A DNA stretch of 64,000 nucleotides, from NCBI GenBank assembly GCA_002633005.1, contig NMRA01000031.1, positions 1,318,858 to 1,382,857 of the forward strand, in the 5' to 3' direction. Position numbers and translations under genes: made by a program. Below are positions 2,749 through 38,800 of this stretch, piece after piece. Each line of letters starts with the position of its first letter. Within the stretch, counting starts at the first letter, position 1. The DNA is from Phoronis australis. Lineage: Eukaryota > Animalia > Phoronida. The notes beneath the pieces were generated by a model. It ran no database searches. It had not been told where the DNA came from and saw only the letters and a program-made list of their open reading frames with translations.

Positions 2749-5700
2749 ATGGCTGACGCGGAAAACCACAAAGAACAAGTAAGCAAAGGATGTTCAAACT
2801 TACACCCTTATAGCCGAAAGTGACTTGACGTTTTGGTGAAAATTAGAGTCATGTCTTGCGTTGTCTTGTAGATCCATGCACTTGGCGTACGTACAGCACC
2901 TTAAGACGTGGTAGGCGTATTTCCCTTTTCCGAGATGACTGGACAGTTGCCCCATGGCCTTGTTTTAAGTGCCCGCTTTCTGATGTTCAAATGTGGGCAA
3001 CTCATTTAAAGTCTGATACTTCCTAACCAGCATTCATATCGTCTCATGTCTCACAGTATTTATGCAGTCCCAACGCTTTTAGGCTCAAACTGAAAAGGAA
3101 TTGGGCAATGCGGCATACAAGGAAAAGAAATTTGAGGAAGCTCACGGACATTATGACAGAGCTATTAAGCTAGATCCGACGAACATCGTATTCTACACTA
3201 ATAAAGCAGGTATGGAGAATGCTTTTACTCCCCTGATCAACACTGTTTGCTTTTCTTCATTGTTGAAGTTAAAACTGCGTTTCCTCCAGTTTATCTGGCT
3301 AAGAAATCACAGCAGGCTCGATAAACGAGCTGCGGGCTGCAACGAGACCTGAAATTTGGAAATACAATTTCAGGTTGTGCCCTACTATCATTAGTCACTC
3401 CTGTGGTTTAAGTTAGACATTCTGTTAACTAAACTTTGCAAAGCTGCAGGTTAATTGGGCCACCTTAAGCAGTTGCCTATTCTGGAAGCATTCTTAGTTC
3501 TTCCACCATGAAAATGTAGGCCAACTTTGAACAACAGATCAGGTGATTATCGCCAAGATGAGCTCTCTTTGGCAGACTGCTTAAGGTGGACATTGAGTCT
3601 TCCGTGAAACCAAATGATGCATCTCGGCAGTGGGGTCATCGCCGAGGTGTTCCTTGTAGTTCACAGTAGCCAATACTCTCAGTCCTTTAATATACTCTAG
3701 GCAGGGACTCTTCACCTTTGTTGAACTCATTTGTACCCAGGTAAGCCAACGAAATTAAAAAATTCAGTTGTGCAAGTCCCTGTATGAATGCTACTCCCCT
3801 CAGTCAAGCACATCTGAAGGCATGGGAAACTGGTAAAGCGGTCCTTTTTGAAACCTAAACACTGACATCAAGAACTAGTTAAAAAAACTTGCCAACATGG
3901 ATAATTCGAGACCTGAAGACTGTTGGCTAATTCCACTGAAAGAACACATTTGACGACGCATGTGCTAAAGGGCTTGTATAGACAGTCGTGTCTCGGAAGT
4001 GAATTCAGCTTTATGATGAATCAACTTTGGGCAAATTTGAAATGTATTAGAACAGAATGTTTTGTTCCAAGCTGGATTAGTCTATGGGAAACTAGTGAAG
4101 CAGTGCATTTTCGGAACCTAGACACTGGCATCAAGAACCATGTAAAAATACTTGCAACATGGAGAATTCGAGACCTGAAGACTCTTGGCCAACTCCACTG
4201 AAAGAATGACATTTGAAGACGCATGTGTTAAAGCGCCAGGAAAGACAGTGGTGACTCAGATGTGAATTCAGCTTTATAGTGAATCAACTTTTGCCAAATT
4301 TGAAGTGTATTAAAACACTATGTTGCATCCCAAACTACGTAACTTAATATTTCAACTAACTAGTACAGTTTACACTGCTCTGGACAACATGACCGTCCCT
4401 CTTACTAACACGTGCAAACGAACAAATTCACTGCCACGGCATTGCCCGTAAGGTTTTCTAAATTCACAGAACCCTTTTGATTATTCCCTTTTATATTGAA
4501 TCAACCTAGACCCATGGCATCTGAGGTCGATACCCCAAGTGCCACTGATATTGGCCCCCTCTCATCACTTGCCCTTATTTGTTACCAGTGTCTGTTGAAC
4601 ATCTCTGGCTACGACAGTGATTGCGACATGACACATCGGGTTATTTCGACATCACGAAATGTTGTAGTCCAAAACAAGTGTTCTTGATAACCTTGCTCGT
4701 TTTTCAGCTGTCTACTTGGAGCAGAGCAAATTTGGGGAGTGTATCAAGATATGTGAACAAGCTGTCTCAGTGGGCCAGAACAACCAAGCAGACTGCAAGT
4801 TGATAGCCAAGTGAGAATTGTTCTGAAGAGTCCTAACATGAGTTGTTGCAGACTTGCCTGTAGATGGGTTTTAAATTCTTTTGAGATAGGACCTTATCGC
4901 ATGGGATTCTTTGGAGACAAAAGTACAACCGTGCAATGGTATTTGCCTAGATCAGAAGTTTAATTAAGGCAATTAAGCTCATTGATGCCAACTGTACCAA
5001 GAAATTGCTTGTAATACAGAAATTACGAGAATAGCAACTGCATTGTAAAATTGTTGAATTGACCAAAAACTTGGTACTTAGAACTGAGAAAAGAGAGAGA
5101 AGGAACTTTACATTCTAAGCATATGTCAGGAGCTTGTGGCAGAGACTTGTGCAATTTTTGTGACGTTAATGAATGAGACACGTTCTCGATGTATTCGCAG
5201 GGCCTTTGCACGGATGGGAAAATCATACCAGCGACAGAGTGACTTGAAAAATGCATTGCTGAATTTCAACAAATCATTGGCAGAACACAAGACCCTTGAT
5301 GTAGAGAAATTAGTGAAAGAGGTAAAAAGTGATGTGGAGTTAATTAAGCCACACAATTCAGTAATGTTTGGCTAGGAGTGGGTGATTGACCGGTGTCAGA
5401 TGACCACTGGTGTAGGAGTGGATCACTGGCCGATGTCTGAGGACCACTGGTGTGTGCTGGTAGAAGTGTACTGCAAGCTCCTAAATTTCACATTTTAATA
5501 TCAATTGATTTAAGTTGACTATTAGTTTGTCATATCTACTGGCAATTTAGTTCATAACTGAACACCTGATTATTAAAAACTGTACGGAGAATACGAGAGA
5601 GTGTCTGTGAAGCTATCTACTTACAGGAAATATCGTCAAATAAACAAATTTGGGACTGTGAACATTTCTGAAGGCCACGTGAATAGAACAAAGGATAATT

Positions 5701-8700
5701 CTTTTATAATCCTGTTATATTTCGTCACATATGTGAAGGTAGCAAAACTGTCAACCAAAGCCAACCATATAGGGCGGGCACTGGTTACAGTCGGGCTAAA
5801 AAGGACGACATGCAACTTTAGTGTATGAGATGTTGCTATCCATGTTATATACGAGAAAGAGGAGTTGGTCTTGATTATAGTTGAAATGTAAGGTTTCCTA
5901 TATGCTTCAAAGATGAAGTCAAAGAATTTTCCTATTTGTCTCTGTCTCTGTATATCAAATAATTGTTTGTTTGTGATAGATTTCAGAAGAGGAGCTGCGT
6001 CGGCTGGATGACGGAGAAACTGAGCTAGCATGTTCACTTAAAGAACTGATAAAGTCGGAAGGAGGGTCAGCGTCAGCTGGGACCATCTTTGTCAAAATGG
6101 GCAATATTCATAAAGAGCGGGCTTTGTTGACAAAATGTGTCCAACATTGTGTTACTGCTTCCGCGCTGTATAACGCTGCTTTAATAAGAACAAAGGATGG
6201 AGAGTTAGTTGAGGGCCTTGAGGCGACAGTAAGAGAAAATGAACAAGCATTTTGTGACCTATTGTCATTGCCTGGGAATAAAGTTCCCGTTGATTACAAG
6301 ACAGATACAAAAAATAGGTTGGACAGTATCAGAAAAAGAGTTTCACCAACACCCGAAAAATTATTGGAAGATTATAACAAGGCACTCCAGTTAGATCCAA
6401 CTGAAACTGAGCGTTTGTCATTGGAAAAAGAATTTGTAGAGGAAACTAGGCGAGTCTTTAAAGACATGTGTTCTGATATAATTTCTCTTGATGGATTTCT
6501 TATGACAAAAGCGGAGGAAATATTAGGGCCACCTCCACAGGAGTACGCAGCTATAGCCATGGGGTCTTTAGCTAGAGGAGAGGCAACGCCGTTTTCGGAT
6601 CTTGAGTGGGCAATTCTTATTGAAGATGAAAGTAAAGACCTTGAGTACTTCCGAAACTTGGTAAGACTTGTGCATTTATTTGTTTTAAATTTTGGAGAGA
6701 CATATCTTAGAACCATGAGCATCAAATCACTGAATGATTACTACACTCCTGGTGGGAATTGGTTTGTGGACGACGTAGTGGCACGTGGATTTGAATTCGA
6801 CAGTGCTGCCCCCTATGCGTGCAAGACCCCATTAGGACGAGCAGACAGACCAGAGAGACCAGGTATAGAGTTGATCAGAACACCTGAAAAGATGGCCGAG
6901 ATATGTGAATATGATACAGCATTAAAGGAAGGCTACATATTTGATCGCGTTCTGTCCACTACTGTGAAGCTTCATGGTAGCCATGATGCCGACCGTCTTG
7001 TGAAAGAATTTAAAGAAAAGAGGAAAAAATATAAAGCTGATGACCGAGTACTTAAAAAAGTGCATGTGGAAGTCATGGAGATACTTGGGCAATTCAGACC
7101 ACAAAAAATGCTTGTTAACGACATGGTTCATGACATTAAGCAAGATATGTTCCGATTGCCTACTGTGGTCATGAGCTTGTTAAAGACACTGTTCGGCGTG
7201 GACAGTGAATTCACATGGGACGTTTTGAGGGAACTGGAACACAACAAAATGTTGACAGAAGATGGTTGCCACAATTTACTGGTGGTTGTGTCCATTGTTG
7301 CTCTCCTGAGGCTAGTGATGTACTGTCAGAAGTCTTGTCAAGGGGAGTTGTTATCTTGGGCACCGCAGACCCTTGAGAGCGGTGATGCAGACTCCAAGAC
7401 AGTAACCCGACTTTACGGATACAAACCTATACTCATTCGGTATGCTTACACCGTTTTCCCGTTTGCTGAATGTATTGGTCGTATAGATTTCAAGACCATT
7501 TGTGAATCAAAGAAGCTGGGCGGTGTTTTCTATGATCGTAATCACTTTAACATTGCTTTACTAGAGGAGAAATTCATGTGTTTTGATGAATCTCGGCGTA
7601 ACTTCATTAAACACATTAAGAACATTTCGGATAATGCATGTGCGAAGGAAGCGAACAGGGAATGTTTCCTGAACATCAAATATGGACCAGACGGCGAGGA
7701 TGTTTCCTGCTTCGTTTACGACTTCACTGTTCTGTTGGCCTTACAAATGATCTCAAGCACTTACTTCCATGAGGGTATTTTCCAAAAGGCGTTAGAGTTC
7801 TGCAGATATGCGTCGGAAGCCATTACTAAGCAAGGTAAACCAAACAGTTCATCTGCACCAGGTCTCGATTTCGTTGAAAAGCATCAGAAATTATTTTCAG
7901 CAGACATCTTGCAGTGTGCATGTCAGGCCTATTATAGATTGGGCGATTACAACTCAGCTCTAGATTACGCAAACCAGTCGTTGGAAGTTTTCGAATGTCT
8001 AAGCGACTCTCTGGACAAAGTGAACAGTATAACAATGATTGGCACAATTTACAAGGCTATGGGCGAGTATGACAAAGGTATGAAGTTCTTAGAGGATGCA
8101 TTGAGTTTGCTAAACAACTGCGAGGACTTCCCTTCTAAACTACTGAAATATCACATTATTCATGTCAAGGGTCTTGTTCATGAAAAACGTAGAAATCACG
8201 ACGTGGCACTAGAAAGTCATAAAGAAGCGTTAAAAGGCTTACAAAAGATCTGTGGATACGGGGACCATTTCCAAATTGCGTCTGGTTTGCGAAATGTTGG
8301 AAGCGCTTACGCTAATAAGGCCGAGTATAAACTTGGGTTGAAATATTTTAACGACTCGCTAAGTATGAGTAAAACTCTAACTAAAGGGGAAGACCATCTT
8401 CTTACCATGGGATTGTTACGTAACATTGGAAACTTGCACCTGAGAACTGGTGAGATCGAATTAGGATTTAAAGTATGTCAGGAATCCTTAGATATGTGTA
8501 GTCGGATTTTTGGTGATGTTCATCCTGAAAGAGCAGAGTGTTTGTTGAAATTCGGTGTGGCGTGTGGCAAAGGCGGGAAACACGAATTGGCTTTGGAAAG
8601 TGTCAAGAAGGCCTTGCACATTTGGAGAAAACTCCTTGGTGATGTAGACCATCCCAACATTGCTAAATGTTTAGAAAACCTAGGGTTATCTTACTTCAAT

Positions 8701-8865
8701 AGGATGGAGTACCAAAATGCCTTGTCTCATTCTCAACAAGCATGGGATATGAGAGTTAGAATTTTCGGATACTCGCAACGTTATAAAATAGCTCGTTTGC
8801 GAGAGCTTATTATCTGGTGCTTAGCGATATGTGCATACAAAAACTATCTAGTATCCTGTACATGA
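2749..8865 (+). CDS. Chimeric HOP-TPR2A / DUF294-like nucleotidyltransferase / TPR-array protein, copy 1 (complete, about 1088 aa)
   Basis: Exons 2749-2778, 3083-3209, 4708-4810, 5201-5321, 5980-8865. All introns are GT-AG with compatible phases (0,1,2,0), total 3267 nt with an open frame. Exons 2-4 read AQTEKELGNAAYKEKKFEEAHGHYDRAIKLDPTN...TNKAAVYLE...LIAKAFARMG...NKSLAEHKT (STIP1 TPR2A-like). Exon 5 has GSLARGEATPFSDLE and C-terminal TPRs. Confidence 0.88.
3083..5321 (+). other. STIP1/HOP TPR2A-like domain encoded by three small exons (copy 1)
   Basis: The spliced peptide aligns without gaps, from memory, to human STIP1 [49 protein letters not shown]...QIAKAYARIGN...NKSLAEHRTPDV. Confidence 0.88.
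6541..7345 (+). other. Pol-beta-superfamily nucleotidyltransferase domain (DUF294/GlnD/GlnE-like) plus helical substrate-binding-like domain
   Basis: YAAIAMGSLARGEATPFSDLEWAILI fits the hG[GS]xxRxE-x4-SDx[DE]hhhh signature. Downstream are GFEFD...CKTPLG...ELIRTP, then DIKQDMFR...TWDVLREL...LLRL, resembling the DUF294_C/GlnD helical domain. Confidence 0.75.
7740..8790 (+). repeat. C-terminal TPR array (kinesin-light-chain/nephrocystin-3-type, roughly 7-8 repeats)
   Basis: Recurring units such as DHFQIASGLRNVGSAY...EYKLGLKYFNDSLSM, HPERAECLLKFGVAC...ALESVKKALHI and DHPNIAKCLENLGLSYFNRMEYQNALSHSQQAWDM. Confidence 0.85.
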
Positions 8866-9419
8866 TGTAACATGATGTGTACTTTTGTATTTATATTTAT
8901 GTTGGAGTTCTGTATATTCTCCGTACTGTACGGTAGAATTAGCTAGTATTTTAGTTCTGTATTTTCATTTTGTAGATTTTAAATGTGTTGGATAATACCA
9001 CTTGTGCTAACGTTTCATTGTTAAATCTCACCGACTTTTAAATAAAGATTATTACTACTCAGTACTACAGGATGATCACGTGAAAAGCGCCGGAGTCACT
9101 AAAGCATCAAGCAGTCGAAAAGAAAAAAAAGAACAACTAACGTTCTCTGCTCCTCTCGGCATTTTTTTCCACTAGGTGCCTCACCACCACATTGAGCGAA
9201 CTTCATTTTTTGCCAACTTCACCAAGCATGCCGCCATCCGGCCCCATCTCATTTTTACGATAGGCCTATGCCTCGTTCCCCTTATCTTACAAGAAAATAA
9301 GCATTATAATTAAATCTGTAAACAAGTTAACATTTGATTTAATTTCAATACACAAGCATTAAGGCACAACCGGAGAAAAGCTTTTTCCCGGAAATATAGT
9401 TCAAATTTTTCCCGTCTCA

Positions 9420-9745
9420 ACGGCCGACGAAGGACGACGGGAAAAACAAAAAATATTGCCCCATTTCTGCACATGCGCATTAAGGTACCTCGGCAAAAGT
9501 TTTTCCTGGGAAAGGTTTTAACCTGGTTCCCGGGCCTCACAAGATGACGTCACGGATAACTTGTGAAGGCCCAGGTACAGGATACTAGAACGATGGATTT
9601 CATTGGCTGTCAGCTGGCAATTTTTAACCAGGAAGTTGGTTCTGCGCATGCTTACATCCGGTAATACGTTACTAGGTCGCTAGGTGTCGCGAAAGTAAAA
9701 GTTATTTTGCGAGTTGCGTTTGCGGTCGGAACTGTGGTGAGGTAG
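9420..9745 (+). promoter_or_regulatory. CpG-rich putative promoter / non-coding first exon
   Basis: Cluster of a CRE (tgacgtca 9545-9552), NRF1-like gcacatgcgca and tgcgcatgc, reverse CCAAT (attgg) and ETS-like caggaagt, ending in a donor-like gag|gtagct near 9741, just before a 1-N contig join at 9774. Confidence 0.3.
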
Positions 9746-9850
9746 CTGTTTATATTGTTATATTATCAACAAANATACACTACATGTAGTGTATTGGGGA
9801 CGATCAGAAGCTGAGGACGCCTGTGCGTGCCGCTAGGTGGTCATTAGCGA

Positions 9851-10008
9851 TGTAGTAATAGCCGAGATTACCCGACCCGGGGATCGAACCCGCGACCCCC
9901 ATAAAACCGGCAAGCGTGCTAACCATTCAGCTAATACTAATAGGCAATTGCCCGTTAGCGAGTAGCTAACAGAGGCTCATATAATTCACCGGAAGCGCAT
10001 CTACAACA
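9851..10008 (-). mobile_element. Short solo-LTR-like element containing a tRNA-like Pol III promoter
   Basis: TGTAGTA...TACAACA termini with a 4-bp direct repeat GCGA on both sides (9847-9850, 10009-10012). Minus-strand A box TAGCTGAATGG (9933-9923) and B box GGTTCGATCC (9890-9881). Confidence 0.65.
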
Positions 10009-10207
10009 GCGACATTAGCCAGCGTGCTGGCTATGCACGCAGGGAACCATCGAGGTACTTGTAGATATATCTGCGGGTATTTGACGTTGTTATGTTATAC
10101 ATAGGCTGTCGGCAATTTTCGCCTGGTTTCGAAAGTATAGTGGTGATATTGTCCCAAGTCGAAACTTCTGACATGCCACACCTTTGGCCACCATGGTGTT
10201 AATACGT

Positions 10208-10465
10208 GGCTGCATGTTTTCTAGCCTGCCAGCTAGCTGTATGTTGTCGTCAAAATACGGCTAGGTACCACAGTGTGTATTTCTTCCGTAGACCCCGAAA
10301 TTGCATGCAGCCACAGCCAAGGTAGTATTTATGTATATACAGCTTAATTTGTACCAAGGCTACATGTTTTCTAGCCAGCCAGCTATAGCTGTATATTGTC
10401 GTCAAAATACAGCTAGGTACCACTGTGTGTATTTCTTCCGTAGACCCCGAAATTGTACGCAGCCA
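10208..10465. repeat. Local direct duplication of about 110 bp
   Basis: catgttttctagcc...gtcgtcaaaatac.gctaggtaccac.gtgtgtatttcttccgtagaccccgaaattg occurs at about 10213 and about 10362. Confidence 0.8.
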
Positions 10466-11723
10466 GGGTAATTCTGCTCTTCACCGCGTTGTGAAACTTG
10501 TATCAAAATGTAAAGCTAAAGACCGGACGGGGTGCATGTAAAATCTGGGAATAAACCGATACCTTGCCCGTTACAGCCGTTTAAGTGAAAAACAATGCAA
10601 TAAACGTCATTTTCTTGTGTAACTCTCTGCCTTTTCTAACAATGAAAAGTATGTGTTCATTTTGAAAACAATACGCTCGTGTCACATGCACGCGCCATTT
10701 CCTAAATTTTCGCGACAACTTCGGAGAAGCAAAATTTTTTCTGAAATTCGTTTTTTTGGTATCGAAATTCTAAAAAGTTGTAATGAAGTGAAACCAGTTC
10801 CAATAACTTGTTGTGACATGTACGCAAGCTCGTGAAAGAACAGCAGTTGATTGAAGAATCGGCGAAAAAAGAAACTGGTCAATAGGTGACGCAATATTTC
10901 ATGGCGCCGAAAGCCGTCGCTAAAGATCGCTCCACAACTTTAGCAGCAGAATAACGGTAGAACGTCATTGTTTCCACCACTGTTAAATAATTTTGTTTAC
11001 TCAAGGAAGACTGTAGTTTTTAACAGCACTAATTTTGTGTCAGATTTTATCTTACCACTTTTTTACCCACATCGGTGCAAAGCTGTACGTTATTTATATA
11101 CAGCTTTGTACCAAGGCTACATGTTTTCATGCTTTCTGGCTAAGCACCATTTCCGACATGACTGACCAGTTTCTCCCACAGCACACTGGCGTCAAAGTAA
11201 GCATGGACTTTTTTAGGCAATGTAGGGCCAGCAGAGGCGATGGTTATTGCCTAGGGCTTTTTGGGAACATTTAATTTTTGTGCTTTGACCGCAATTGTTG
11301 CGAACTCGCTGGAGCAAGACACAGTGAATGGTATTAGAAGAAAGAACAATTGCAAATAGTTTGTTGAAACCCTGTTTTGTGTAAATTTATTGAGTTTTGT
11401 GTTTAATATGGACGGCTGAAGTGAAGCACCCGTGGAATTTCTTGTCGAGAGTGTCATATCTTGTTGTATTATAATAGTGTATTGAGAACGATCAGAAGCT
11501 GAGGACGCCTGTGGTTGCCCGGCCCTTGCAGTGTGGCCTAGATTTATATGTGTGAGGTAAAGTTGTTTCATCATTTCAGTGGGAAGGTGTCCGCTTTTTG
11601 ATTTTCAAATGTTGGCAACTCATTGAAAGTCTGACAGGTAAATGATTAAACAACTTTATCCACTTGGATATCTAACTAGCATTCATATCGTCTCATGTCT
11701 GACAGTTGTCTCAACGTGTTTAG

Positions 11724-14700
11724 GCTCAAGCTGAAAAGGAATTGGGCAATGCTGCTTACAAGGAAAAGAAATTTGAGGAAGCTCACCAACGTTATGACCG
11801 AGCTATTCTGCTAGATCCGACGAACATCATATTCTACACTAATAAAGCAGGTATGGAGAATAAGTGCTTTTACTCCCCTGATCAGCACTGTTTGTGTTTC
11901 TTCATTGTTGAAGTTAAAATCTGCATTTTACCCAGGTATCAGGCTAAAAGCAAAATCAAAGAAGGCTCGACAAACGAGCTGCAGACTGCGCATTGCGACC
12001 TGAAATTTGAAAATACAACCTCCGATTTGGCCTACTGTTATTAGTCACACCTGTGTGACTTGGGCATTCCAAGTTCCGAGTCACATCTGAAAGTGCTGCA
12101 GCAATGATTCTATTTTCTAGTTGGAACGCGGAAAATTCGTGTAACACAATACCAGAAAACGTTTCGGTTTTTTGGTGGTCAGTATTGAGAGACGTGAATT
12201 TCAGATTTGCGAGCTTGGATTTTGACCAGGTCGCAACCTAGTTCTCATGCTGTTGAGGGTGGATATTTTCATGGTAGGACTTGTTACCAAGAAGAACATA
12301 CAGTGCTCTTGATAACCTTGCTCGTTTTATTTTTAGCTGTCTACTTCGAGCAGCGCAATTTTGGGGAGTGTATCAAGACATGTGAACAAGCTGTCTCAGT
12401 GGGCCAGAACAACCAAGCAGATTGCAAGTTGATAGCCAAGTGAGAATTGTTCTGAAGAGTTCCTAGCATGAGTTGTTGCAGACCTTTCAGTAGATGGGTT
12501 TTAAATTCTTGTATGATAAGACCGTATCACATGGGATTCTTTGGAGACGAGAGTACAACCGTGCCATGAAATTTGTAGAGATCAGAGGTTTAAGGCAGTT
12601 AAGCTTATTGATGCCAACTGTACTGCAGAACTTAGGAGAATAGCAACTGCATGGCAGAATTGTTGAATTGAACAAGAGCTAAGGTACTGAGAATTAAAGA
12701 AATTTTTGTTAATTCAATAAATGGCACATTTCCGGTGTGTTCGCAGGGCCTTTGCACGGATGGGAAAAGCATACAAGCGACAGAGTGACTTGAAAAATGC
12801 ATCTGGGAATTTCAAGAAATCGTTAGAAGAAAATTGGACCCCGGATGTAGAGGAATTAATAAAGGAGGTAAAAGTGAAGTGGAGTTAAACAGGTTTCCTG
12901 ATTCAGTAATGTCTGGATAAGAGTGGGCTGTTACAGGCCGGTGTCAGAGGACCACTGGTGTAAGAGTGGGTCACTGGCTGGTGTCAGTGGACCATTGGTG
13001 TGTGCTGGTAGAAGTGTACTGCAAGCTCTTAAATTTTACATTTCAATGTCAATTGACTGAAGTTAACTGTTTTAATTTATTTGTTTTTTGTGACTACTGG
13101 CAATTTACTTCATAACTGTACACCATTGATGTACGGAGGATACGAGCATTTGTGAAGCAATCCAATTATTTGACTAGAACAGTGCGCAATTGTTTTATAA
13201 TCCTGTTATATTTTGTAAGAAATGTGAAGGTGGCTCATTCCAAATTTCTTTGAAAACCTTTAATTTCCTCACAAAAACTGCAAAGCAAAGCCAGCCACAT
13301 ATGGCGACACAGGTTGCAGTGTTGCTAATGCAACTTTAGTGTAACTACATGAACTTTTACTTTCCTTGTTGTACATGAGGAGTTGGTCTTGAGTATAGTG
13401 TTCAAATGTTGTAGGATTTCCTGTACTGTATGCTTCTAAGATGAACTCAAACCATGTTCCTATTTTATCACTGCTTATCACATAATTGTTTGTTTGTAAT
13501 AGATTTCAGAAGAGGAGCTGCGTCGGCTGGATGACGGAGAAACTGAGCTGGCGTGTTCACTTAAAGAACTGATAAAGTCGGAAGGAGGGTCAGCTTCAGC
13601 TGGGACCATCTTTATCAAAATGGGCAATATTCATAAAGAGCGGGCTTTGTTGACAAAATGTGTCCAACATTGTGTTACTGCTTCCGCACTGTATAATGCC
13701 GCTTTAATAAGAACAAAGGCTGAAGACTTAGTTAAGGGTCTTGAGGCGACAGTAAGAGAAAATGAACAAGCATTTTGTGACCTCTTGTCATTGCCTGGGA
13801 ATAAAGTTCCCGTTGATTACAAGACAGATATAAAAAATAGGTTGGACAGTATCAGGAAAAGAGTTTCACCAACAGCCGAAAAATTATTGGAAGATTATAA
13901 CAACGCACTCCAATTAGATCCAACTGAAACTGAGCGTTTGTCATTGGAAAAAGAATTTGTAGAGGAAACTAGGCGAGTCTTTAAAGACATGTGTTCTGAT
14001 ATAATTTCTCTTGATGAATTTCTTATGTCAAAAGCAGAAGAATTATTAGGGCCACCTCCACAGGAGTACGCAGCTATAGCCATGGGGTCTTTAGCTAGAG
14101 GAGAGGCAACGCCGTTTTCGGATCTTGAGTGGGCAATTCTGATTGAAGATGAAAGTAAAGACCTCGAGTACTTCCGAAACTTGGTACGACTTGTGCATTT
14201 ATTTGTCTTAAATTTTGGAGAGACATATCTTAGAACCATGAGCATCAAATCACTGAATGATTACTACACTCCTGGTGGGAATTGGTTTGTGGACGACGTA
14301 GTGGCACGTGGATTTGAATTTGACAGTGCTGCCCCCTATGCATGCAAGACACCATTAGGACGAGCAGACAGACCAGAGAGACCAGGTATAGAGTTGATCA
14401 GAACACCTGAAAAGATGGCCGAGATCTGTGAGTATGATACAGCATTAAAGGAAGGCTACATATTTGATCGCATTCTGTCCACTACTGTGAAGCTTCATGG
14501 TAGCCAAGGTGCCGACCGGCTTGTGAAAGAATTTAAAGAAAAGAGGAAAAAATATAAAGCTGATGGCCGAGTACTTAACAAAGTGCATGTGGAAGTCATG
14601 GAAATACTTGATCAATTTAGACCACAAAGAATGCTTGTTGACAACATGGTTCATGACGTCAAGCAAGATATGTTCCGATTGCCTACTGTGGTCATGAGCT

Positions 14701-15517
14701 TGTTAAAGACACTGTTCCGCGTGGACAGTGAATTCACATGGGACGTTTTGAGGGAACTGGAACACAACAAAATGTTGACAGAAGACGGTTGCCACAATTT
14801 ACTGGTGGTTGTGTCCATTGTTGCTCTCCTGAGGCTGGTGATGTACTGTCAGAAGTCTTGTCAAGGGGAGTTGTTATCTTGGGCACCGCAGACCCTTGAG
14901 AGCGGTGATGCAGACTCCAAGAAAGTAACCCGACTTTACGGATACAAACCCATACTCATCCGGTATGCTCACACCATTATTCCGTTTGCTGACTGCATTG
15001 ATGGTGTGGATTTCCAGATCATCTGTAAATCAAAGAAACTGGACGGTGTTTTCTACAGTCAGAGTTACTTAGATGTTGCTTTCCTAGAGCAAAAATTCAT
15101 GTCATTTGATAAAGCTAGGCAGAACTACATTTTACATATTGAGACCATTAGGAATAGTGCATCTGCGATAGAAGCGAACGAGGAATGTTTCCTGAACATC
15201 AAATATGGACCAGACGGCAGGGATGTTTCCTGCTTCGTGAATGACCTCTCTGTTCTGTTTTCCTTACGAATGATAGCGAACAACTACCTCCACGAGAGTC
15301 TTTTCCTCAAGGCATTAGAGTTCTTTAATTATACAATTGAAGCCACCTCTATGCAAGGTAAACCAACCATTTCATGTGGATCAGGCCGCGATGTATTTGA
15401 AAAGCATCGGAAACTATGTTCGGTGCACTCTCTGCAGGGTGCATGTGAGGCCTGTTATAGATTGGGCGATTACAATTCAGCTCTAGATTACGCAAACCAG
15501 TCGTTGGAAGTTTTCAA
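11724..15517 (+). CDS. HOP-TPR2A / nucleotidyltransferase / TPR protein, copy 2 (partial: first exon not found, 3' end cut at a contig join)
   Basis: Exons 11724-11850, 12337-12439, 12747-12867 and 13503-15517, with the same small-exon sizes and phases as copy 1. The frame is open until the N at 15518, after which the sequence jumps to intron-2-like DNA. Confidence 0.8.
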
Positions 15518-16436
15518 NGATATTGAGTCTTCCGTGAAACCAAATGATGCATCTCAACAGTGGGGTCATCACTGAGGTGTTACTTGTCACAGTAGCCAAT
15601 CCTCTTAATCCTTTAATATACTCATGGGAAGGACACTTCACTTTTGTTGAACTCATTTGTACCCAGGCAACGAAATTAAAAAATGCAGTTGTGCTAGTCC
15701 CTGCATGAATGCGACTCGCCTCGTGCTTATGATTTCCTTTCCACCAAAGAACCATATGTCATCCTGTTGCCAATGAAGACATGGGAGACTAGTAGTCAAG
15801 TTGTGCATTTTGGGAACCTAATCACTGGCACTATAACACGTAAGAACCAAAGAGAAATGCTTGCCTGCTTGCCAGCTTGGATAGTTCAGGAACTGAAGAC
15901 TGTTGGCTAATTTCCACCCGTGACCGAAAGAATACGTTTGAAGATGCATGTGCTAAAACGCTTGTAAAGACAGCGTTGTCTTAGAAGTGAATTCAACTTT
16001 ACAATGAATCATTTTTGAGCAAATTTGAAATGTATTAGAAGACAATGTTTTGTCCCAAGCTGGATTAGTTGATATTTAAACTTTAGTAAATTTCACACTG
16101 CTCTAGACTGTTCTATCAGAAATCACTCTTACTAAAATGTGTAAACAAACAAATACACTGCCACGGTATTGTCTGGAGCATTTTCTAATTTCACAAAACC
16201 TTTTCAGCTTTGTCTTTTTATACTGACTAACTATAGTCTGATGGCATCTGCGATTGTTACCCCAGTTACCACTTACGTTGGCTCCTCCCAGCGTTGCCCT
16301 TAATTTTTAATTAGTGTCTGTTAAATATTTCGGGCTACGCAGTGATTGCGACATGATGCATTAGGAGATTGCGACATCGCGAGGTATAGCAGTAAAACAC
16401 CAGTGCTCTTGATAACCTTGCTCGTTTTATTTTTAG

Positions 16437-19400
16437 CTGTCTACTTCGAGCAGCGCAATTTTGGGAAATGTATCAAGATATGTGAACAAGCTGTCTCAGT
16501 GGGCCAGAACAACAAAGCAGATTGCAAGTTGATAGCCAAGTGAGAATTGTTCTGAAGAGTCCTAACATGAGTTGTTGCAGACCTTTCAGTAGATGGGTTT
16601 TAAATTCTTGTATGATAAGACCGTATCACATGGGATTCTTTGGAAACGAGAGTACAATCGTGCGATGAAATTTGCAGAGATCAGAGGTTTAAGGCAGTTA
16701 AGCTTATTGATGCCAACTGTACCAAGAAATTGCTTGTAATGCAGAAATTACGAGAATAGCAACTGCATGGCAGAATTGTTGAATTGAACAAGAGCTAAGG
16801 TACTGAGAATTAAAGAAATTTTTGTTAATTCAATAAATGGCACATTTCCGGTGTATTCGCAGGGCCTTTACACGGATGGGAAAGGCATACAAGCGACAGA
16901 ATGACTTGAAAAATGCATCTGTGAATTTCAAGAGATCGTTAGAAGAAAACTGGACCCCAGATGTAGAGGAATTAATAAAAGAGGTAAAAAGTGAATTGGA
17001 GTTAAACAGGTTTCCTGATTCAGTAATGTCTGGATAAGATTGGGCCGTTACAGACCGGTGTCAGATGACCACTGGTGTAGGAGTGGGTCACTGGCCGGTG
17101 TCTGAGGACCACTGGTGTTTGCTGGTAGAAGTTTACTGCAAGCTCTTAAATTTTACATTTCAATGTCAATTGACTGAAGTTAACTATTTTAATTTATTTG
17201 TTTTTCGTGACTACTGGCAATTTACTTCATAACTGTACACCACTGATGTATGGATTATACGAGCATCTGTGAAGCAATCCAATTACTTGACTAGAACAGT
17301 GCGCAATTCTTTTATAATCCTGTTATATTTCGTAAGAAATGTGAAGGTGACTCATTCCAAATTTCTTTGAAAACCTTTAATTTCCTCTCAAAAACTGCCA
17401 AGCAAAGCCAGCCACATATGGCGACACAGGTTGCAGTGTTGCTAATGCAACTTTAGTGTAACTACATGAACTTTTACTTTCCTTGTTGTACACGAGGAGT
17501 TGGTCTTGAGTATAGTGTTCAAAGGTTGTAGGATTTCCTGTACTGTATGCTTCTAAGATGAACTCAAACCATGTTCCTATTTTATCACTGCTTATCACAT
17601 AATTGTTTGTTTGTAATAGATTTCAGAAGAGGAGCTGCATCGGCTGGATGACGGAGAAACTGAGCTAGCGTGTTCACTTAAAGAACTGATAAAGTCAGAA
17701 GGAGGGTCAGCGTCAGCTGGGACCATCTTTATCAAAATGGGCAATATTCATAAAGAGCGGGCTTTGTTGACAAAATGTGTCCACCATTGTGTTACTGCTT
17801 CCGCGCTGTATAACGCTGCTTTAATAAGAACAAAGGATGGAGAGTTAGTTAAGGGTCTTGAGGCGACAGTAAGAGAAAATGAACAAGCATTTTGTGACCT
17901 CTTGTCATTGCCTGGGAATAAAGTTCCCGTTGATTACAAGACAGATATAAAAAATAGGTTGGACAGTATCAGGAAAAGAGTTTCACCAACAGCCGAAAAA
18001 TTATTGGAAGATTATAACAACGCACTCCAATTAGATCCAACTGAAACTGAGCGTTTGTCATTGGAAAAAGAATTTGTAGAGGAAACTAGGCGAGTCTTTA
18101 AAGACATGTGTTCTGATATAATTTCTCTTGATGGATTTCTTATGTCAAAAGCAGAAGAATTATTAGGGCCACCTCCACAGGAGTACGCAGCTATAGCCAT
18201 GGGGTCTTTAGCTAGAGGAGAGGCAACGCCGTTTTCGGATCTTGAGTGGGCAATTCTGATTGAAGATGAAAGTAAAGACCTCGAGTACTTCCGAAACTTG
18301 GTACGACTTGTGCATTTATTTGTCTTAAATTTTGGAGAGACATATCTTAGAACCATGAGCATCAAATCACTGAATGATTACTACACTCCTGGTGGGAATT
18401 GGTTCGTGGACGATGTGGTGGCACGTGGGTTTGAATTTGACAGTGCTGCCCCCTATGCGTGCAAGACACCATTAGGACGAGCAGACAGACCAGATAGACC
18501 AGGTATAGAGTTGATCAGAACACCTGAAAAGATGGCCGAGATCTGTGAGTATGATACAGCATTAAAGGAAGGCTACATATTTGATCGCATTCTGTCCACT
18601 ACTGTGAAGCTTCATGGTAGCCAAGGTGCCGACTGTCTTGTGAAAGAATTTAAAGAAAAGAGGAAAAAATATAAAGCTGATGGCCGAGTACTTAACAAAG
18701 TGCATGTGGAAGTCATGGAAATACTTGATCAATTTAGACCACAAAGAATGCTTGTTGACAACATGGTTCATGACGTCAAGCAAGATATGTTCCGATTGCC
18801 TACTGTGGTCATGAGCTTGTTAAAGACACTGTTCCGCGTGGACAGTGAATTCACATGGGACGTTTTGAGGGAACTGGAACACAACAAAATGTTGACAGAA
18901 GACGGTTGCCACAATTTACTGGTGGTTGTGTCCATTGTTGCTCTCCTGAGGCTGGTGATGTACTGTCAGAAGTCTTGTCAAGGGGAGTTGTTATCTTGGG
19001 CACCGCAGACCCTTGAGAGCGGTGATGCAGACTCCAAGAAAGTAACCCGACTTTACGGATACAAACCCATACTCATCCGGTATGCTCACACCATTATTCC
19101 GTTTGCTGACTGCATTGATGGTGTGGATTTCCAGATCATCTGTAAATCAAAGAAACTGGACGGTGTTTTCTACAGTCAGAGTTACTTAGATGTTGCTTTC
19201 CTAGAGCAAAAATTCATGTCATTTGATAAAGCTAGGCAGAACTACATTTTACATATTGAGACCATTAGGAATAGTGCATCTGCGATAGAAGCGAACGAGG
19301 AATGTTTCCTGAACATCAAATATGGACCAGACGGCAGGGATGTTTCCTGCTTCGTGAATGACCTCTCTGTTCTGTTTTCCTTACGAATGATAGCGAACAA

Positions 19401-20499
19401 CTACCTCCACGAGAGTCTTTTCCTCAAGGCATTAGAGTTCTTTAATTATACAATTGAAGCCACCTCTATGCAAGGTAAACCAACCATTTCATGTGGATCA
19501 GGCCGCGATGTATTTGAAAAGCATCGGAAACTATGTTCGGTGCACTCTCTGCAGGGTGCATGTGAGGCCTGTTATAGATTGGGCGATTACAATTCAGCTC
19601 TAGATTACGCAAACCAGTCGTTGGAAGTTTTCAAAAGTCTAAGGGACTCTCGGGACAAAGTGTATAGTATAAAAACTATTGGCACAGTTTACTATGCTAT
19701 GGGTAAGTACGACGAAGCTATGAAGTCCTTAGAGGATGCACTGAGTTTGCTAATCAACTGCGAGGACTTCACTTCTAAACTACTGAAATATCACATTATT
19801 CATGTCAAGGGTCTTGTTCATGAGAAATGTGGAAATCATGACTTAGCTCTAGAAACTCATGAAGAAGCGTTAATAGGCTTACAAAAGATCTGTGGATACG
19901 GGGACCATTTCCAAATTGCATCTGGTTTGCGAAATGTTGGATGCGCTTACGCTAATAAGGCTGAATATGAACTGGGGTTGAAATATTTTAACGACTCACT
20001 GAATATGTGTCGAGCTCTAACTAAAGGTGAAGACCACATTCTTACCATGGGATTGTTACGTAACATCGGAAACTTGAACCTGAAGATGGATAAGGTATAT
20101 GGTTTGGCGGAATTGGGATTGAAAGAATGTCAAGAATCCTTGGACATGTGTAATCGGATTTTTAGTAATGCTGATCATCCTGAAACCGCAGCGTGTTTGC
20201 TTAAGCTTGGTGTTGCGTTTGGCAATAACGGGAAACCTGAATTGGCTTTACAAAGCCTCAAAAACGCCTTGCGCATTTGGAGAACATTTCTTGGTCATGT
20301 AGACCACCCTGACATTGCTACCTGTTTATTTAACCTTGGATTATCTTATTATTGCATGAAGGAGTACCAGTCTGCTTTGTCTCATTTTGAACTAGCAAGG
20401 GATATGACTGTTAGGATTTTTGGGGACTCACAACCTAAGAAAATAGGTATTTTTGAGAATTTCATTACCCTAGTTCGTAATTCTATGGCTGGGAAGTAA
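16437..20499 (+). CDS. HOP-TPR2A / nucleotidyltransferase / TPR protein, copy 3 (5' exons missing at the contig join)
   Basis: Exons 16437-16539, 16863-16983 and 17620-20499. The large exon is intact (920 aa from its internal Met). Upstream 15519-16436 is homologous to copy 1 intron 2. Confidence 0.85.
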
Positions 20500-28000: not shown

Positions 28001-31000
28001 AAAAACAAAAACAAATCACATAAAACAAAAGACGAGAGATAATTTTAGATTTCGTGTTGTGCATTTTTGTGAAATTTGCTTATGTTTGATACTGTTTTTT
28101 GATGTTTTTGTTTGATACTGTTGTTTGATACTGTTGTTTGGCTACCAATGTACCATTCTTTGTTTTTTTTGGTTTTACTATAAAAACAGGTGGCACACCA
28201 TGGGGGTGGGGGGAGGGGGGCTATAGCCCACTTACTTCAGTGCATGCGCCGCCCATGTGTAAAGATATTGTCAAATGTCATCGTTAATGGCAGATTGTTT
28301 ATAAAGTCAACAATCAAATTCCACAGTCTTCCTACTTTCGGTTAAATTCTACAGATGTGTATATATTTCACTAAATGCACAGATTTGCCATTAAAACAAC
28401 AACGGTTTTAAAACTTGACATGTTTCGGTGTCATTTATTAAACACCATCCTCAGAAGTCATTATAAAGTGGCCACCTAGCTAGACTGGTCTAGTTCATTG
28501 GCACTCCCTGTAACTGACTGTTTCTGTGCTTCATTACTTGTTGCTGGGCCTAGCTAAGTGGCCACTTTATAAAGACTTCTGAGGATGGTGTTTAATAAAT
28601 GACACCGAAACATGTCAAGTTTTAAAACCGTTGTTGTTTTCGTGAACATATGCTGTTACTTGCTATCATGGAGATTTGTCATTAAAGTCTCACATAACCA
28701 TAAGGAGGAAGTCATTTGGTATTGCTAGCGAGACGATAGTCTTCCTTGAACACATGCGTGCTTTCTGATAATCACGACCAGATAATAGTAACCTGCATGG
28801 GTCCTGCATTTTGAGAACCTGTTTTCTCCACTCAATAACGTGCAACGACTGGATTCTCAAAGTACCAGGCAGTGCCGTATTGGTAAAATTAGAGGTAAGT
28901 AGGCCCCCAAAGCCCACCGTATCACCTTGAGCACTGAACGTAACTTACGGTGGGTAGGTGCAACATTCAAATGCCAAAAGGTGGTTGGCTGCTCCTATGT
29001 GCGCCTATGCCCCACTACAGCACCGGTACCAGGCCTCAGTGACTTATTGCTCTTGAATATCTTTATATCTGTGTTATTGTGTTTTCAGGGAACCCCTTAA
29101 TAAAGTACCAGCGGAAGTCATGTTTCCGTGGCACTTCAATCGCCTGCAGAAGTGTATTGTGCCCAGTGCACCCAGTCTTGATCATGTTGTTATCAATGTG
29201 TTCACTGATCAAGGGCTTCACATTGGTAAGTACTGACAGCGCAAGATAGGTCAAAGGTGAACTCATTCACAGCTGCCGTGGGCACGCCTTCTGTCAGAAA
29301 CATAACAAAAATAACTGTTCTTTGTTATGAAATTAGACTGAAATTGTCCCTTGTTCATATTATGTGTGATTTCTGTGCTTGGAAAGAGCTGATTTGTCAT
29401 TTTTGCTGAGATCAGGGTTAATTAATTGGTCTGGCCTAGCAGGTTTCTTATGTGCGGAGCATGACCTCCTAACGAGCTGTCACTTCTTGCCAAACCCACG
29501 CAATATTCATTTAATTTAAGGCAAAATGAAGTATGGTTGAACCTCATTACAATGTGCATTTGTAAAATTTGTATGTTATAATGATGGTTGTAACTACAGT
29601 TAAGTTGCATACATTAGGCATAATCAGGAGTTGGAAATTTATCACTTTTAACATTCTAAACAGGTTACATTGTAACAGGATTCAACTGTAAGATCTAAAG
29701 GGTGTGTTTTAGAATATACCATGGGTGGCTATAATCAGAAATGTAAGACATCAATCATGTCACACATTAACATATTCATTAATTACACATCGGCATATAT
29801 GCGTGTAGAGTCATATAGCCATTGCATTGTCTGAGCGTACGCCATTTATGTAGGACCTATTGACAAGTCTTGCATTTAGCTGACGTTAATTTTTGGAAGT
29901 TCTGGCCACTGTACCGCCTCGTAGCGATCTTCTTAATCCTTTGCAGAATTTTTGTGAAATTTGACAAGTGTTTTCATCTGAATGTGACAATGGATGACCA
30001 TGACTGTGAGACAGAACTGACGACTGCTGCTCCCCCTAGTGAGAATTTTAGTTTTCGTGGTTACCTCTGTATCTTCAGGTTCATTGACGGTTTTTCATGA
30101 AAGTTTCCAAATAAATTTCAATTATGGCGACAACATCACCTTTCCAGTTGAGACAGACTTTATATTCTGCAAGTCCTAGTGTTCATTATCCAACAATTAA
30201 AATCATTCTACAGGCGGTATTGCTCTCTGCGACTGCCTTTCTGGTGTTTTAATGTATTGATACTGAGTTTTATTCCTTTAAAGAACCTAATTATGTCAAG
30301 CTGAAACTGCAAACTTCAGATTGAAATGAATCAAGTTAGCGATGGCGAATCTTCCTGTTGCTTCAATCATTGAGCATCGCTCTGCCAAGGCTTTTAAGCG
30401 GGTTAATTGAATAAGCAGTTAATGACAGTACATGGATTGATGACATTGCATGGACTGATGACAATGTATGGGTTGATGACAGTGCATGGACTGATGACAA
30501 TGTATGGGTTGATGACAGTGCATGGGTTGATGACAGTGCATGGGTTCATGACAGAGCATGGATTGATGACTGTGCATGGATTGATGACAGTGCATGGATT
30601 GATGACAGTACATGGGTTGATGACACTGCATCGACAGACCCAAATGTTGAAACACTTCTAATTGCGTCAAAATATCTCAGAAGTACTGACACACTTCAAT
30701 AAATCACATTTTGGGTGGGTGTTTACCTTCAGATGTCTTGTGGTATCTCAGGTTAACCTGTACTGTTAAAATGGAACTTGCATGCTTATTCAATAACTCT
30801 GTGGTTGCTTGGCCAAATTAGTCAGAAGCACAACATACAGCGACGATGTGAATATTAAAGAGGTTGAAATTTGCCAAATGTTTTGAAGAACAAGTTTTGT
30901 GGCGAAAATGATCTTTTGCAAATCTCTGAACTGGGTCCAGTAAGTATCGTGACGTGATGCTGGGGAATAGCACTGTATAATGGAACATCATTTGTGCGAA

Positions 31001-35801: not shown

Positions 35802-38800
35802 TCAGTGTGCCGACTCAGGCAAGAAGATCTCCACTTCTTCCCCACTCGATATCCTATGTCTCATGGCTCTTTTCGCTGCCAGAAGCCTCTTCCTGGCTTC
35901 CTCCCGAGCTTTTGCCGGGTTTTTAGCACCTTCCTTGGTTTTTGTTGTCTTTGTCCGAGCACCTGCCCAAGTAGATTGCAAAATGAATGAAGCAAAGTGT
36001 ACCACATGAAACATGAACAATCTGTCATAATACCACAACAACTGGTCTACGACAGGAAAATTGTGCAAGTCCTTGACGCCCAATTTAAAACGGATAGCAA
36101 CCACAGTGCCTCCCATAAAAATCTAGATCCCTGGTTATCTTGGAGGGATGACATGGTTTCCTGCTGATCACTGCTCCCTAGATGTGCATTTATTAATCAT
36201 GAATTAATACAAAGTAATGACCCACCAAAAAGCACACAACGTGGCTCTGCTGTCCATAATCTATGCTTCCATTCAGTGAACGTGAATGACACACACAGAC
36301 TGCCTACAATAGTGTTTGCGCAGTGGAATTGAACACAGAGGCAAGATGCAGGTGTTTTGCTGGCCGTACACAACATGTTCTAATGTTCTTTGAGCAGTAC
36401 ACAACAGATGAGGAGACAGTAATTAATATGGAAATATGCTTCTCCAATATAACCACGAATCTTCATTTTTAAGAAACATAAAAGGCATAAGAGTAACGCA
36501 AAGCATTGAAGTAGGCTAATGACTACACCGCAAATGGTATACTTCTAGGGGTGTTTATTAGGATCTTAAAAACGGTGACCAGTAAGTGAAGCAAAATATG
36601 TCAAACCCCACCCAAAATGGGAAGGCATCATTGCCTCCATTAAAGAAACCTATTTGCTTAATTTCATGAAAATCCTTCAAGGAACTCTTGAATATACAGA
36701 GGCAAACGTAACGAAATAAAACTGCCACTAGTAGGCATAGTGGTATTTGGATCTGCCCAAGAGAAGACATCATCTGTTGTCGCGAACATAAGAATGCAAT
36801 TGCCAAAGTTCACAAAGATCCAGCAATCTGTTTAGGACATACAGACATAGATGCTAAAAACAAAATTGCCACTAGAAGGCACCACAGTACTCAGATCTGT
36901 CAATGTCCCCAATGGTCTTTTATTGCAGTAAGACATCTGCTCTTCGGACTGGTTTGGCAAATATACAGATGCCAAATAAACATGAAAACAAAAATGCTCT
37001 GAAGAGCGGCACTTGGAATAAGAATTTAAAGGTGAGGTGGGTGACGAAACCTACGTGTTAAATAGCCCTTGATGAGATCTAGTTACAAACCAAATTTAAA
37101 AAGGTTTGGTCCAAGGATCGAGGAGCTAGAACTCCGCAAACATAATTCGAAAAATGGCTGTCACAGTGCCATCTATATAAATTTCACGTTGATCACATGA
37201 AAAATGCGATATGCAGCTCAAATATGATATGGTAACAAAGTGCAGCTATACGTAACTAGTGAAAAAAGAGCAGTCACCTGAGTAGTAAATCTCAAATACC
37301 GTGAGAATGGCGAGTCATAGCAAGCAGTGGATTTCACAATACTGATAGCACTTGAAAAGATCTATCCACATACTACTATTCGGGACAGATTGATATAGGG
37401 AGGCCAGAGTTATGCCACAAAAACGTTAATTGGATATCAGTTGAAAATCTTGAATAAGTCGAGAATGATACGACATAGAGAAAAAGAAATAAGACACTTG
37501 CGATAGCTCTTTTGATGACGTATTGAAAGAAAAAAACCCATAAAAATCCTATCAGAAACAGCGGAGATATGACTCTACCACCAAAAAAGAGAAAATGGCT
37601 ACCACAGTGCCATCTTGTTTCCGATTTTAACCAAAAACAATAGGTTTCAAGCCATTCATGAAACGCATGTTGATCCGATAAGAATTGCGGTCTGTAGCGT
37701 GTGAACAAACAATGAAGTAAAGAAAGAAAGAGAAAGAAGCAAATATTATGACAAAGCAACATACTTGGAGAAATTTCATTTCACCAAGTAGTACTAAAAT
37801 GGGCTCCGGGTGCTCAGAATACGTATGTTGAATCCGTTCAACAAATGGTGAGCAGCTGTTGCCTCCTTATCAAAATCTGTCACGCTACTCGGAAGATAAT
37901 GAGGTAAATATAAGAAACTAAAACTGCCACTAGGTGTCAGAGTGGTAGTCATATCCACTCTAAAGTTGTAGTCATCTCTTGTCACATTCATAAATAGATA
38001 TACATCTGCCAAATTTCACATAGTTCAAAACCATAAGGTGATACAGCGACGGAGGTAAAAAATAACCACTAGTGGGCGCCACAGTAGTCAGACCAATCTG
38101 AAAATCAATGTCAACTGTTGTCTTCTCTGCAGGAAAACATCTGCCAATTTTCACAATGATCCTTCAGGGTAATTAAGCAAATTAGGAGTCAGATACCAAA
38201 AATTCCTAGAAACAAAAACAGCCACAAGGTCCAAAATATACTGAATCTGAAAGGCATAGTCATCTCCTTAATGGAAGCCTGTATGCCAACTTTTAGGGAA
38301 ATCTGTCCCAGGACTCCAAAGTTATAGCGGCAAACGTATAACGCTAAAATTGCCACAACAACTTCTTTGCGACTTTTTTGCAAACTGTGCGGAGCTGCCT
38401 TAAACAAATTTTGCACGCTACTGACATACCTGTGTTCGCTGTGATCTTGGAATGTGTCTTGTTCACCTCAGTAGATGCTCCCTTTTGGCTGGAACTACTC
38501 GAGTTTCTTCGGACACGCTGAAATGTAGAATGGACAATCTCTATACCTCTAAAACAAACCTCTGAATTGGACCATTTAATGTTATAAAATTGGTCTCAAC
38601 TTGCTCAGTACTCAGATTTGCAAAAAGTTGACACATGGCTATTCCTTGCGCAATGCATTGTGCAAAAATAATACTTTGTCTATCAGAGCCAGGCCTCAAG
38701 CACTAACGATTTAACAGATATTTCGAAGCCCTCAAATCGCCTTTAATATAACTAAGGAGCAATTTAAGATCAATTTCATAATGGCAAGTAATCTAAAGCA

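Follow-up and report, generated by a model that had tools for sequence, protein, structure and literature searches.

The window analysed here is a 64,000-nucleotide stretch of the genome of the phoronid Phoronis australis (GenBank assembly GCA_002633005.1, contig NMRA01000031.1, positions 1,318,858 to 1,382,857 of the forward strand), with a G+C content of about 40% and genes of the spliced animal type. It contains a small gene array in which three exons encoding the tetratricopeptide-repeat (TPR) domain TPR2A of HOP (STIP1) are spliced to a large exon, which encodes a predicted nucleotidyltransferase (NTase) module resembling DrrA and glutamine synthetase adenylyltransferase (GS-ATase), followed by a TPR solenoid. 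The best reading of this fusion, judged from its motifs and predicted structure, is that of a protein NMPylase (an enzyme transferring nucleoside monophosphate, NMP), probably using ATP and docked through TPR2A on Hsp90; we consider the chances of this reading to be evenly balanced. Within the literature searched, the NTase-TPR core is not new and is in print only from Neochlamydia. What is new is the capture of TPR2A, which makes the gene a variant, specific to its lineage, of an enzyme fold and a family that were already known.

Work on the NTase-TPR family has been hindered by the want of a target. The enzyme described here is spliced to a domain whose ligand in HOP is the tail of Hsp90, and thus offers a handle on chemistry and target together. 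The gene is also a clear-cut case, verified by RNA, of housekeeping-gene exons captured by a fast-changing enzyme family that animals share with intracellular bacteria.

Exon structure and transcription

Copy 1 of the gene consists of five exons (Table 1) and, with every intron bounded by GT and AG, encodes 1088 amino acids without an internal stop, in agreement with the length of about 1088 residues foreseen in an earlier sequence-only reading of this DNA. Transcription was assessed in samples of 18-19% from three stranded RNA runs labelled with this species, and the exons are covered by sense-strand RNA. Each joint between exon 2 and the large exon was found in spliced reads with GT..AG introns: exons 2 and 3 are joined in 9 reads (7+1+1 over the three runs), exons 3 and 4 in 19 (12+3+4) and exon 4 and the large exon in 9 (1+6+2), the last being the link between the TPR2A exons and the enzyme that the sequence-only reading had called for. 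None of these joints is present in the X1 DNA contigs. An in-frame form of exon 1, shorter by 9 nt, is joined to exon 2 in 4 reads, and 16 further loose-end reads place an exon 4 of the copy-2/3 type directly 5' of exon 5. The fusion of HOP exons and enzyme is real, transcribed and spliced.

Most RNA reads are 90-99% alike to the window, those at 99% or more numbering 17 of 222, 7 of 238 and 0 of 190 in the three runs; their source is therefore other individuals and largely copy-2/3-like genes, so that the fusion is proven at the level of the family and not joint by joint for copy 1. At 19839-19874, 22 of 22-23 reads (X6) carry letters in the TPR region that match no copy in the window, and at position 8103 three loose-end reads (X5) again carry TPR-region letters foreign to all of them; these represent additional alleles or paralogues in which the TPR half differs. 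A stand-alone TPR2A mini-gene was also considered, exon 4 of copy 1 being able to read on for 16 codons to a stop, and was ruled out because the RNA shows the spliced joint and the read-through of exon 4 differs in copy 2.

The TPR2A domain

Exons 2 to 4 match HOP in order over residues 227-266, 268-300 and 302-342, corresponding to the three collinear repeats of TPR2A (HOP 225-341) and establishing the HOP origin previously proposed for these exons. The residues that form the dicarboxylate clamp, Lys229, Asn233, Asn264, Lys301 and Arg305, are all kept in copies 1 and 2, as are Tyr236 and Glu271 of the Met pocket; excerpts of PMC5480384 describe these seven residues as contacts of the Hsp90 MEEVD peptide (EEVD and the Met pocket). 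Exon 2 carries the equivalents of Lys229, Asn233, Tyr236, Tyr248 and Asn264, exon 3 that of Glu271, and exon 4 those of Arg305 and Lys301, the codon of the latter being split by the intron. The nearest STIP1 found (P0213) is 73-76% identical over exon 2 and identical at 58 of 115 positions over the whole domain. A tblastn search of the window with P0213 matched the TPR2A exons only, and the STIP1 layout TPR1-DP1-TPR2A-TPR2B-DP2 is not reproduced by the window gene. Between copies 1 and 2, TPR2A has a synonymous divergence (dS) of 0.158 and a nonsynonymous divergence (dN) of 0.095, values that show a constraint which is loose but real.

The enzyme module

The large exon begins with a four-helix TPR-like cap that is common to the wider family and has conserved columns at Leu63, Asn65, Ala66, Ala67 and Arg70 (large-exon numbering, used throughout); no Pfam match was found for it. 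The NTase module that follows carries the GSLARGEATPFSDLE motif in all three large exons. Its G-x11-D-x-E pattern is intact in all 168 aligned modules, which comprise 166 of the 178 relatives covering the region (12 were dropped) together with copies 1 and 3. In at least 160 of these modules Gly195, Ser196, Thr203, Ser206, Asp207, Glu209, Glu240, Asp264, Gly270, Asp274 and Lys282 are kept. Glu240 (163/168), Asp264 (166/168) and Asp274 (167/168) are, from the alignment, candidates for the further metal-binding carboxylates that in DrrA are Asp150 and Asp249.

In Pfam, DUF294 (PF03445) scores 33-36 bits against a gathering cut-off of 21 and exceeds it, at 33-34 bits, in all three copies. The second-best match, SidM_N, reaches 19.7-22.9 bits and falls below its cut-off of 27, and the GlnD equivalog models reach 12-18 bits against cut-offs of 519-799. 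No GlnE model is among the profile matches listed for the window protein. DUF294_C (PF10335) gave no Pfam match in the window protein and is carried by 2 of 31 relatives.

An AlphaFold model of residues 105-500, built from 78 sequences (predicted local distance difference test, pLDDT, 91.2), matched DrrA and both GS-ATase domains in Foldseek with E values of 2e-7 to 4e-6; nothing else fell under 1e-3. No viral structure was matched below E 1e-3. In VIA-align, against 48,161 chains, DrrA (6yx5) scored Z 25.8 with a root-mean-square deviation of 3.6 over 297 aligned residues and the two GS-ATase domains scored 24.1 (1v4a) and 23.1, the top three spanning 294-311 residues; DrrA fragments followed at about 10 (10.5) and everything else lay under 8, with aminoglycoside NTases as the next NTase matches (Z 7.5). 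None of cGAS, OAS or CD-NTase, with their Mab-21 or SMODS fold and profile, appears among the fold and profile matches listed, which does not exclude these families. The helical bundle matches HEPN bundles at Z of about 7. The window protein has no His after Arg444 and hence no active HEPN RNase motif (R-x4-6-H), the His being missing as it is in GlnD, GlnE and DrrA; among 150 modules with an Arg equivalent to Arg444, 16 have a His at +5 to +7. The bundles of GlnD, GlnE and DUF294_C proteins are classed as inactive HEPN in the excerpted text of PMC3710099.

Pfam, Foldseek and VIA-align thus agree with the earlier assignment of the module to the GlnE/GlnD/DUF294 branch of Pol-beta NTases with a helical bundle, and on the predicted fold this assignment is right. 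According to the excerpted part of PMC8097203, the activities of DrrA and of the two GS-ATase domains all concern AMP marks on proteins, and the three share the motif G-x11-D/E-x-D/E. Since the closest structure is DrrA/SidM, protein NMPylation is favoured over the production of a nucleotide signal; of the two activities that the sequence-only reading had left side by side, the former gains and the latter is disfavoured.

The TPR solenoid and its divergence

The C-terminal solenoid scores 111-118 bits with TPR_12 in copies 1 and 3 and structurally resembles LGN and kinesin light chain. In the AlphaFold model, seven regular helix pairs occupy residues 629-932 and are preceded by two irregular ones. 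The model of the whole large exon (pLDDT 91.5, predicted TM-score 0.89) suggests that the solenoid is packed in a fixed arrangement against the enzyme.

Identity between copies 1 and 3 is 95% in residues 1-490 and falls to 67% in the remainder. The first part has a dS of 0.09, a dN of 0.022 and a dN/dS of 0.24, a substitution pattern that shows purifying selection on the enzyme half; residues 491-961 have a dS of 0.39, a dN of 0.19 and a dN/dS of 0.49. Introns diverge by 0.16-0.29, and the rise of dS from below to above this level points to gene conversion or recombination. That the variable TPR half is a sensor under positive selection is not shown, as dN/dS is below 1 and dS rises together with dN, and no 50-codon window has a dN/dS above 1 in this comparison of two sequences, which has little power. 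The divergence of the TPR half appears instead to reflect a mosaic history.

Copies 2 and 3

The three tandem copies of common architecture originally reported have to be revised, since copy 2 is a 5' part and copy 3 a 3' part on either side of a single N. Copy 2 breaks off at this N, which falls within its first regular TPR. Exons 1 and 2 are absent from copy 3, where the DNA after the N is homologous to intron 2; RNA depth on the sense strand covers copy 3 and runs on into the 3' untranslated region. The two are 97.3% alike over 3.2 kb, with introns differing by 2.7-4.4%, and identical over the final ~1000 bases before the N. Over this identical stretch the X1 contig depth is 37-49, not double the single-locus values of 41.5, 45.7 and 49, and depths of 39 and 31 were obtained for the parts of intron 2 that tell copies 2 and 3 apart; contig depth is no direct measure of copy number. 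Given the single-locus-like depth and the identity before it, the N is read as an assembly join, and we read copies 2 and 3 as two alleles of one gene or as two genes each half assembled. The array is one of two or three genes, only copy 1 being complete in the window.

Between copies 1 and 2, positions 9400-11500 are occupied by high-copy repeats that are transcribed on both strands, with contig depth in the tens of thousands and another single N at 9774. Exon 1 of copy 2 may be lost within these repeats.

Relatives of the enzyme

The enzyme module belongs to a large family: among 1.84 billion representatives, 1598 clusters match it at an E value of 1e-3 or less, and for 281 the value is 1e-30 or less. 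Of 30 matches looked up, the top 10 are all from Branchiostoma, often automatically named KLC or TTC28, and 9 of the other 20 could be named (four Branchiostoma, two Owenia, one Paramuricea cluster, one Jidaibacter and one Holosporaceae). Clavelina and Parachlamydiaceae are also among the relatives, so that the family spans lancelets, a sea squirt, an annelid, a soft coral and host-associated bacteria, with independent expansions in lancelets and the sea squirt. A pattern scan of GTDB found at least 26 loci, 23 in eight genomes and three weak Corynebacterium matches; the genomes are those of chlamydiae, Holosporaceae, a rickettsial bin, unnamed bins and one gammaproteobacterial bin. The last holds 11 loci (L011-L021), a bacterial expansion like that of NEX2 in Neochlamydia.

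In an unrooted quick tree of 33 rows, in which P0024 and P0155 were labelled bacterial from source and architecture alone, the window genes form a long branch and group with 20 of the 21 animal-labelled rows against 12 bacterial rows (SH-aLRT, the approximate likelihood-ratio test, 96). Recent transfer from bacteria, considered as an origin, is not supported by this grouping. The P0141 cluster, annotated as Paramuricea, falls among the bacterial rows in the tree and is present on metagenome contigs too; it is possibly symbiont contamination or a separate transfer.

No TPR2A-like stretch was found in any of 212 relatives, the best candidates being generic TPRs of 24-30% identity; the system is therefore not defined by the fusion, as had been supposed, its core being that of a large family. 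Protein and representative searches for the same fusion in close relatives found none, the best match being 53% on a fragment, a weak negative because these collections do not hold this organism's own proteins, and a scan of genome contigs with a window peptide gave no match. Other N-terminal captures on the core, counted in 24 of the 178 relatives picked for their long N-termini, comprise CARD, IRF, ankyrin and EGF (one each) and RickCE protease (two), and P0024 carries an F-box at its front. The N-terminal CARD, IRF or RickCE-like protease of P0079, P0086, P0155 and P0162 are possible links to immune signalling. Several relatives, namely P0032-P0037, P0046, P0073 and P0108, have two or three NTase modules per protein, which may be real or fused gene models.

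The literature searched, which did not extend to subscription journals and supplements, gave no description of the animal family or of the TPR2A fusion, and the parts of PMC3482391 and PMC8195603 at hand do not cover them; domain-architecture supplements of family surveys could list the animal family. The earlier statement that no description of the fusion is known agrees with this. The NTase-TPR core is described in the excerpted text of PMC4209131 (Domman et al. 2014) as the Neochlamydia NEX2 family of F-box/OTU-DUF294-TPR proteins, 50 in number and putative effectors.

Proposed mechanism and alternatives

In the proposed mechanism, the TPR2A part is likely to dock on the C-terminal EEVD of Hsp90 and would bring the enzyme to Hsp90 complexes, its target being Hsp90 itself, a partner or a client. 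The enzyme would be likely to transfer NMP, most likely AMP, to a protein hydroxyl, with metal bound by Asp207 and Glu209 together with one of Glu240, Asp264 and Asp274, while the solenoid would select or shield the target. By analogy, the TPR-guided AMPylation of a chaperone, that of BiP by FICD, counts as a precedent for this reading. Ligand gating and an immune role would be conceivable additions. The gene may have originated when a three-exon block of the host STIP1 was copied 5' of a gene belonging to a long-standing family of animals, followed by tandem duplication and then by gene conversion or recombination that homogenized the enzyme half.

Several observations weigh against an Hsp90-docked NMPylase. 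Identity to the structural matches is only 12-14%, and function does not follow from a common fold; 1v4a, itself among the top three, is a deAMPylating domain within 2 Z of DrrA. The HOP contacts Gln298 and Asn308 are replaced by Leu and Lys, a worm STI-1 likewise having Leu at 298, and TPR2A evolves loosely, with a dN/dS of about 0.6. Expression is low, with a depth of about 10-17 in the sampled part of each run. The 212 relatives without TPR2A imply that Hsp90 docking is not needed for the work of the family.

TPR2A might instead be an integrated decoy, a bait through which a microbial HOP-targeting protein or EEVD mimic switches the enzyme on, Hsp90 not being the substrate. The changing captures at the N-termini of relatives (CARD, IRF, ankyrin, EGF, RickCE and F-box on the same core), the independent expansions and the relaxed dN/dS of TPR2A fit such a role, which we nevertheless regard as unlikely: genuine binding of EEVD would call for the five clamp residues, every one of which is kept, and some captures may be gene-model fusions. 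A passenger role for TPR2A, the STIP1 exons having given only a promoter and a start to a core that functions alone and now decaying, would account for the contrast between its dN/dS and the 0.24 of the enzyme half and for its absence from all relatives. This is somewhat less probable still, as every copy has kept its frames and splice sites, the clamp residues are kept, the dN of TPR2A (0.095) is below the intron divergence (0.16-0.29), and identity to a STIP1 has already fallen to 58/115 with no loss of the clamp.

Other alternatives concern the chemistry. The enzyme might make a nucleotide signal, or modify RNA or a small molecule, in a cGAS/OAS-like role gated by the solenoid, given that enzyme-plus-TPR layouts are known in animal cGAS-like receptors (according to excerpts of PMC8195603) and that the NTases matched next are those acting on aminoglycosides (Z 7.5). 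Scores for the protein-modifying branch are three times as high, however, and the GSLARxE..SDxE form with a helical bundle is of the GlnE/DrrA type, which leaves this alternative improbable, marginally less so than a passenger role. The module could also be an eraser that removes AMP from proteins in the manner of the N-terminal domain of GS-ATase, possibly undoing the marks of symbiont effectors; 1v4a aligns over 311 residues with a Z of 24.1, near the 25.8 of DrrA, and has the highest query TM-score (0.57). We rate this lowest of all, since writers account for two of the top three structures, SidM_N ranks second in Pfam and the bacterial relatives resemble host-directed effectors in the portion of PMC4209131 available.

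If the NMPylase reading is correct, this large family of invertebrates, whose DrrA/GS-ATase-type active site is intact, would add a third metazoan class, Fic and SelO being the only metazoan AMPylases known and FICD using its TPRs on BiP (PMC8097203, in excerpt). The broadest form of this proposal, which we advance only tentatively and think doubtful, is that of an invertebrate third class of protein AMPylases with the DrrA/GS-ATase fold, whose member in this lineage would have become, through the capture of the TPR2A exons of HOP, an Hsp90 co-chaperone enzyme. It would parallel FICD in the cytosol by AMPylating Hsp90 or Hsp90 clients, and exchangeable TPR solenoids would determine the target.

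Features of the window

Two further genes were recognized downstream of the array (Table 1). The GKAP/DLGAP-like gene may also include two exons of low complexity, at 41955-42527 and 59961-61181. At 30418-30637 lies a tandem repeat with an 18-bp unit, one frame of which reads as W(V/I)DDSA units.

Table 1. Features of the window (positions are those of the window; +, forward strand).
Feature	Position	Strand	Remarks
Copy 1 exon 1 (ATG, 10 codons)	2749..2778	+	GT donor
Copy 1 exon 2, first HOP TPR2A repeat	3083..3209	+	HOP 227-266
Copy 1 exon 3, second TPR2A repeat	4708..4810	+	HOP 268-300
Copy 1 exon 4, third TPR2A repeat	5201..5321	+	HOP 302-342
Copy 1 exon 5 (large exon, 961 aa): helical cap, NTase and helical bundle, TPR solenoid	5980..8865	+	open frame
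Four-helix TPR-like cap	5980..6291	+	helices 3-94 in model
DrrA/GS-ATase-like module (predicted): Pol-beta NTase core and HEPN-like helical bundle	6292..7479	+	
Catalytic signature G195-x11-D207-x-E209	6562..6606	+	large-exon numbering
C-terminal TPR solenoid of about 9 pairs of helices, of which 7 are regular	7543..8862	+	LGN/KLC-like
Copy 2 (11724-11850, 12337-12439, 12747-12867, 13503-15517)	11724..15517	+	without exon 1 in window; ends at N
Single N, assembly join	15518	.	copy 2 within exon 5, copy 3 within intron 2
Copy 3: remainder of intron 2, then exons 16437-16539, 16863-16983, 17620-20499	15519..20499	+	
FAST-kinase-domain (FASTKD-like) exon, 500 aa	25088-26587	+	FAST_1 E 1e-8
GKAP/DLGAP-like multi-exon gene	about 35800-61200	-	GKAP matches at 39478-39810 and 35805-36122

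Comparison with known systems

The N-terminal domain of DrrA/SidM (6yx5, 3nku) shares with the window protein the whole predicted NTase and helical-bundle fold, the pattern G-x11-D-x-D/E and a weak SidM_N match. It differs in sequence (14% identity, with SidM_N under its cut-off), and no guanine nucleotide exchange factor or lipid-binding domain was detected in the window protein, whose gene is that of an animal, with introns, TPR2A and a TPR solenoid. A DrrA/SidM orthologue was rejected on the SidM_N score below 27 and on the remainder of the protein being TPR. GlnE (the AT and AR domains of E. coli GS-ATase), GlnD and DUF294/DUF294_C proteins have in common with it the predicted fold (Z 23-24), DUF294 above cut-off and a HEPN-like bundle without the RNase motif; the window protein has a single module, scores 12-18 bits with GlnD models as against cut-offs of at least 500, and has no detected cNMP/CBS, HD or ACT domains.

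Neochlamydia NEX2 is similar in its mid-protein DUF294, C-terminal TPR array, variable N-terminus of eukaryotic type and lineage expansion, and its F-box member P0024 is a direct match. It is bacterial and putatively secreted, with F-box or OTU at the N-terminus where the window protein has TPR2A and the helical cap; the activity of NEX2, like that of the window protein, is putative.

HOP/STIP1 shares TPR2A with an intact dicarboxylate clamp, while the window gene is without TPR1, DP1, TPR2B and DP2. No co-chaperone is known to carry a nucleotidyltransferase; PP5 and CHIP are clamp-TPR enzymes, in which the enzyme is carried on an EEVD-binding TPR. FICD/HYPE, which has a Fic fold, resides in the ER (endoplasmic reticulum) lumen, is single-copy, targets BiP and is not homologous, is nevertheless an animal enzyme in which TPR motifs engage a chaperone and AMPylation follows.

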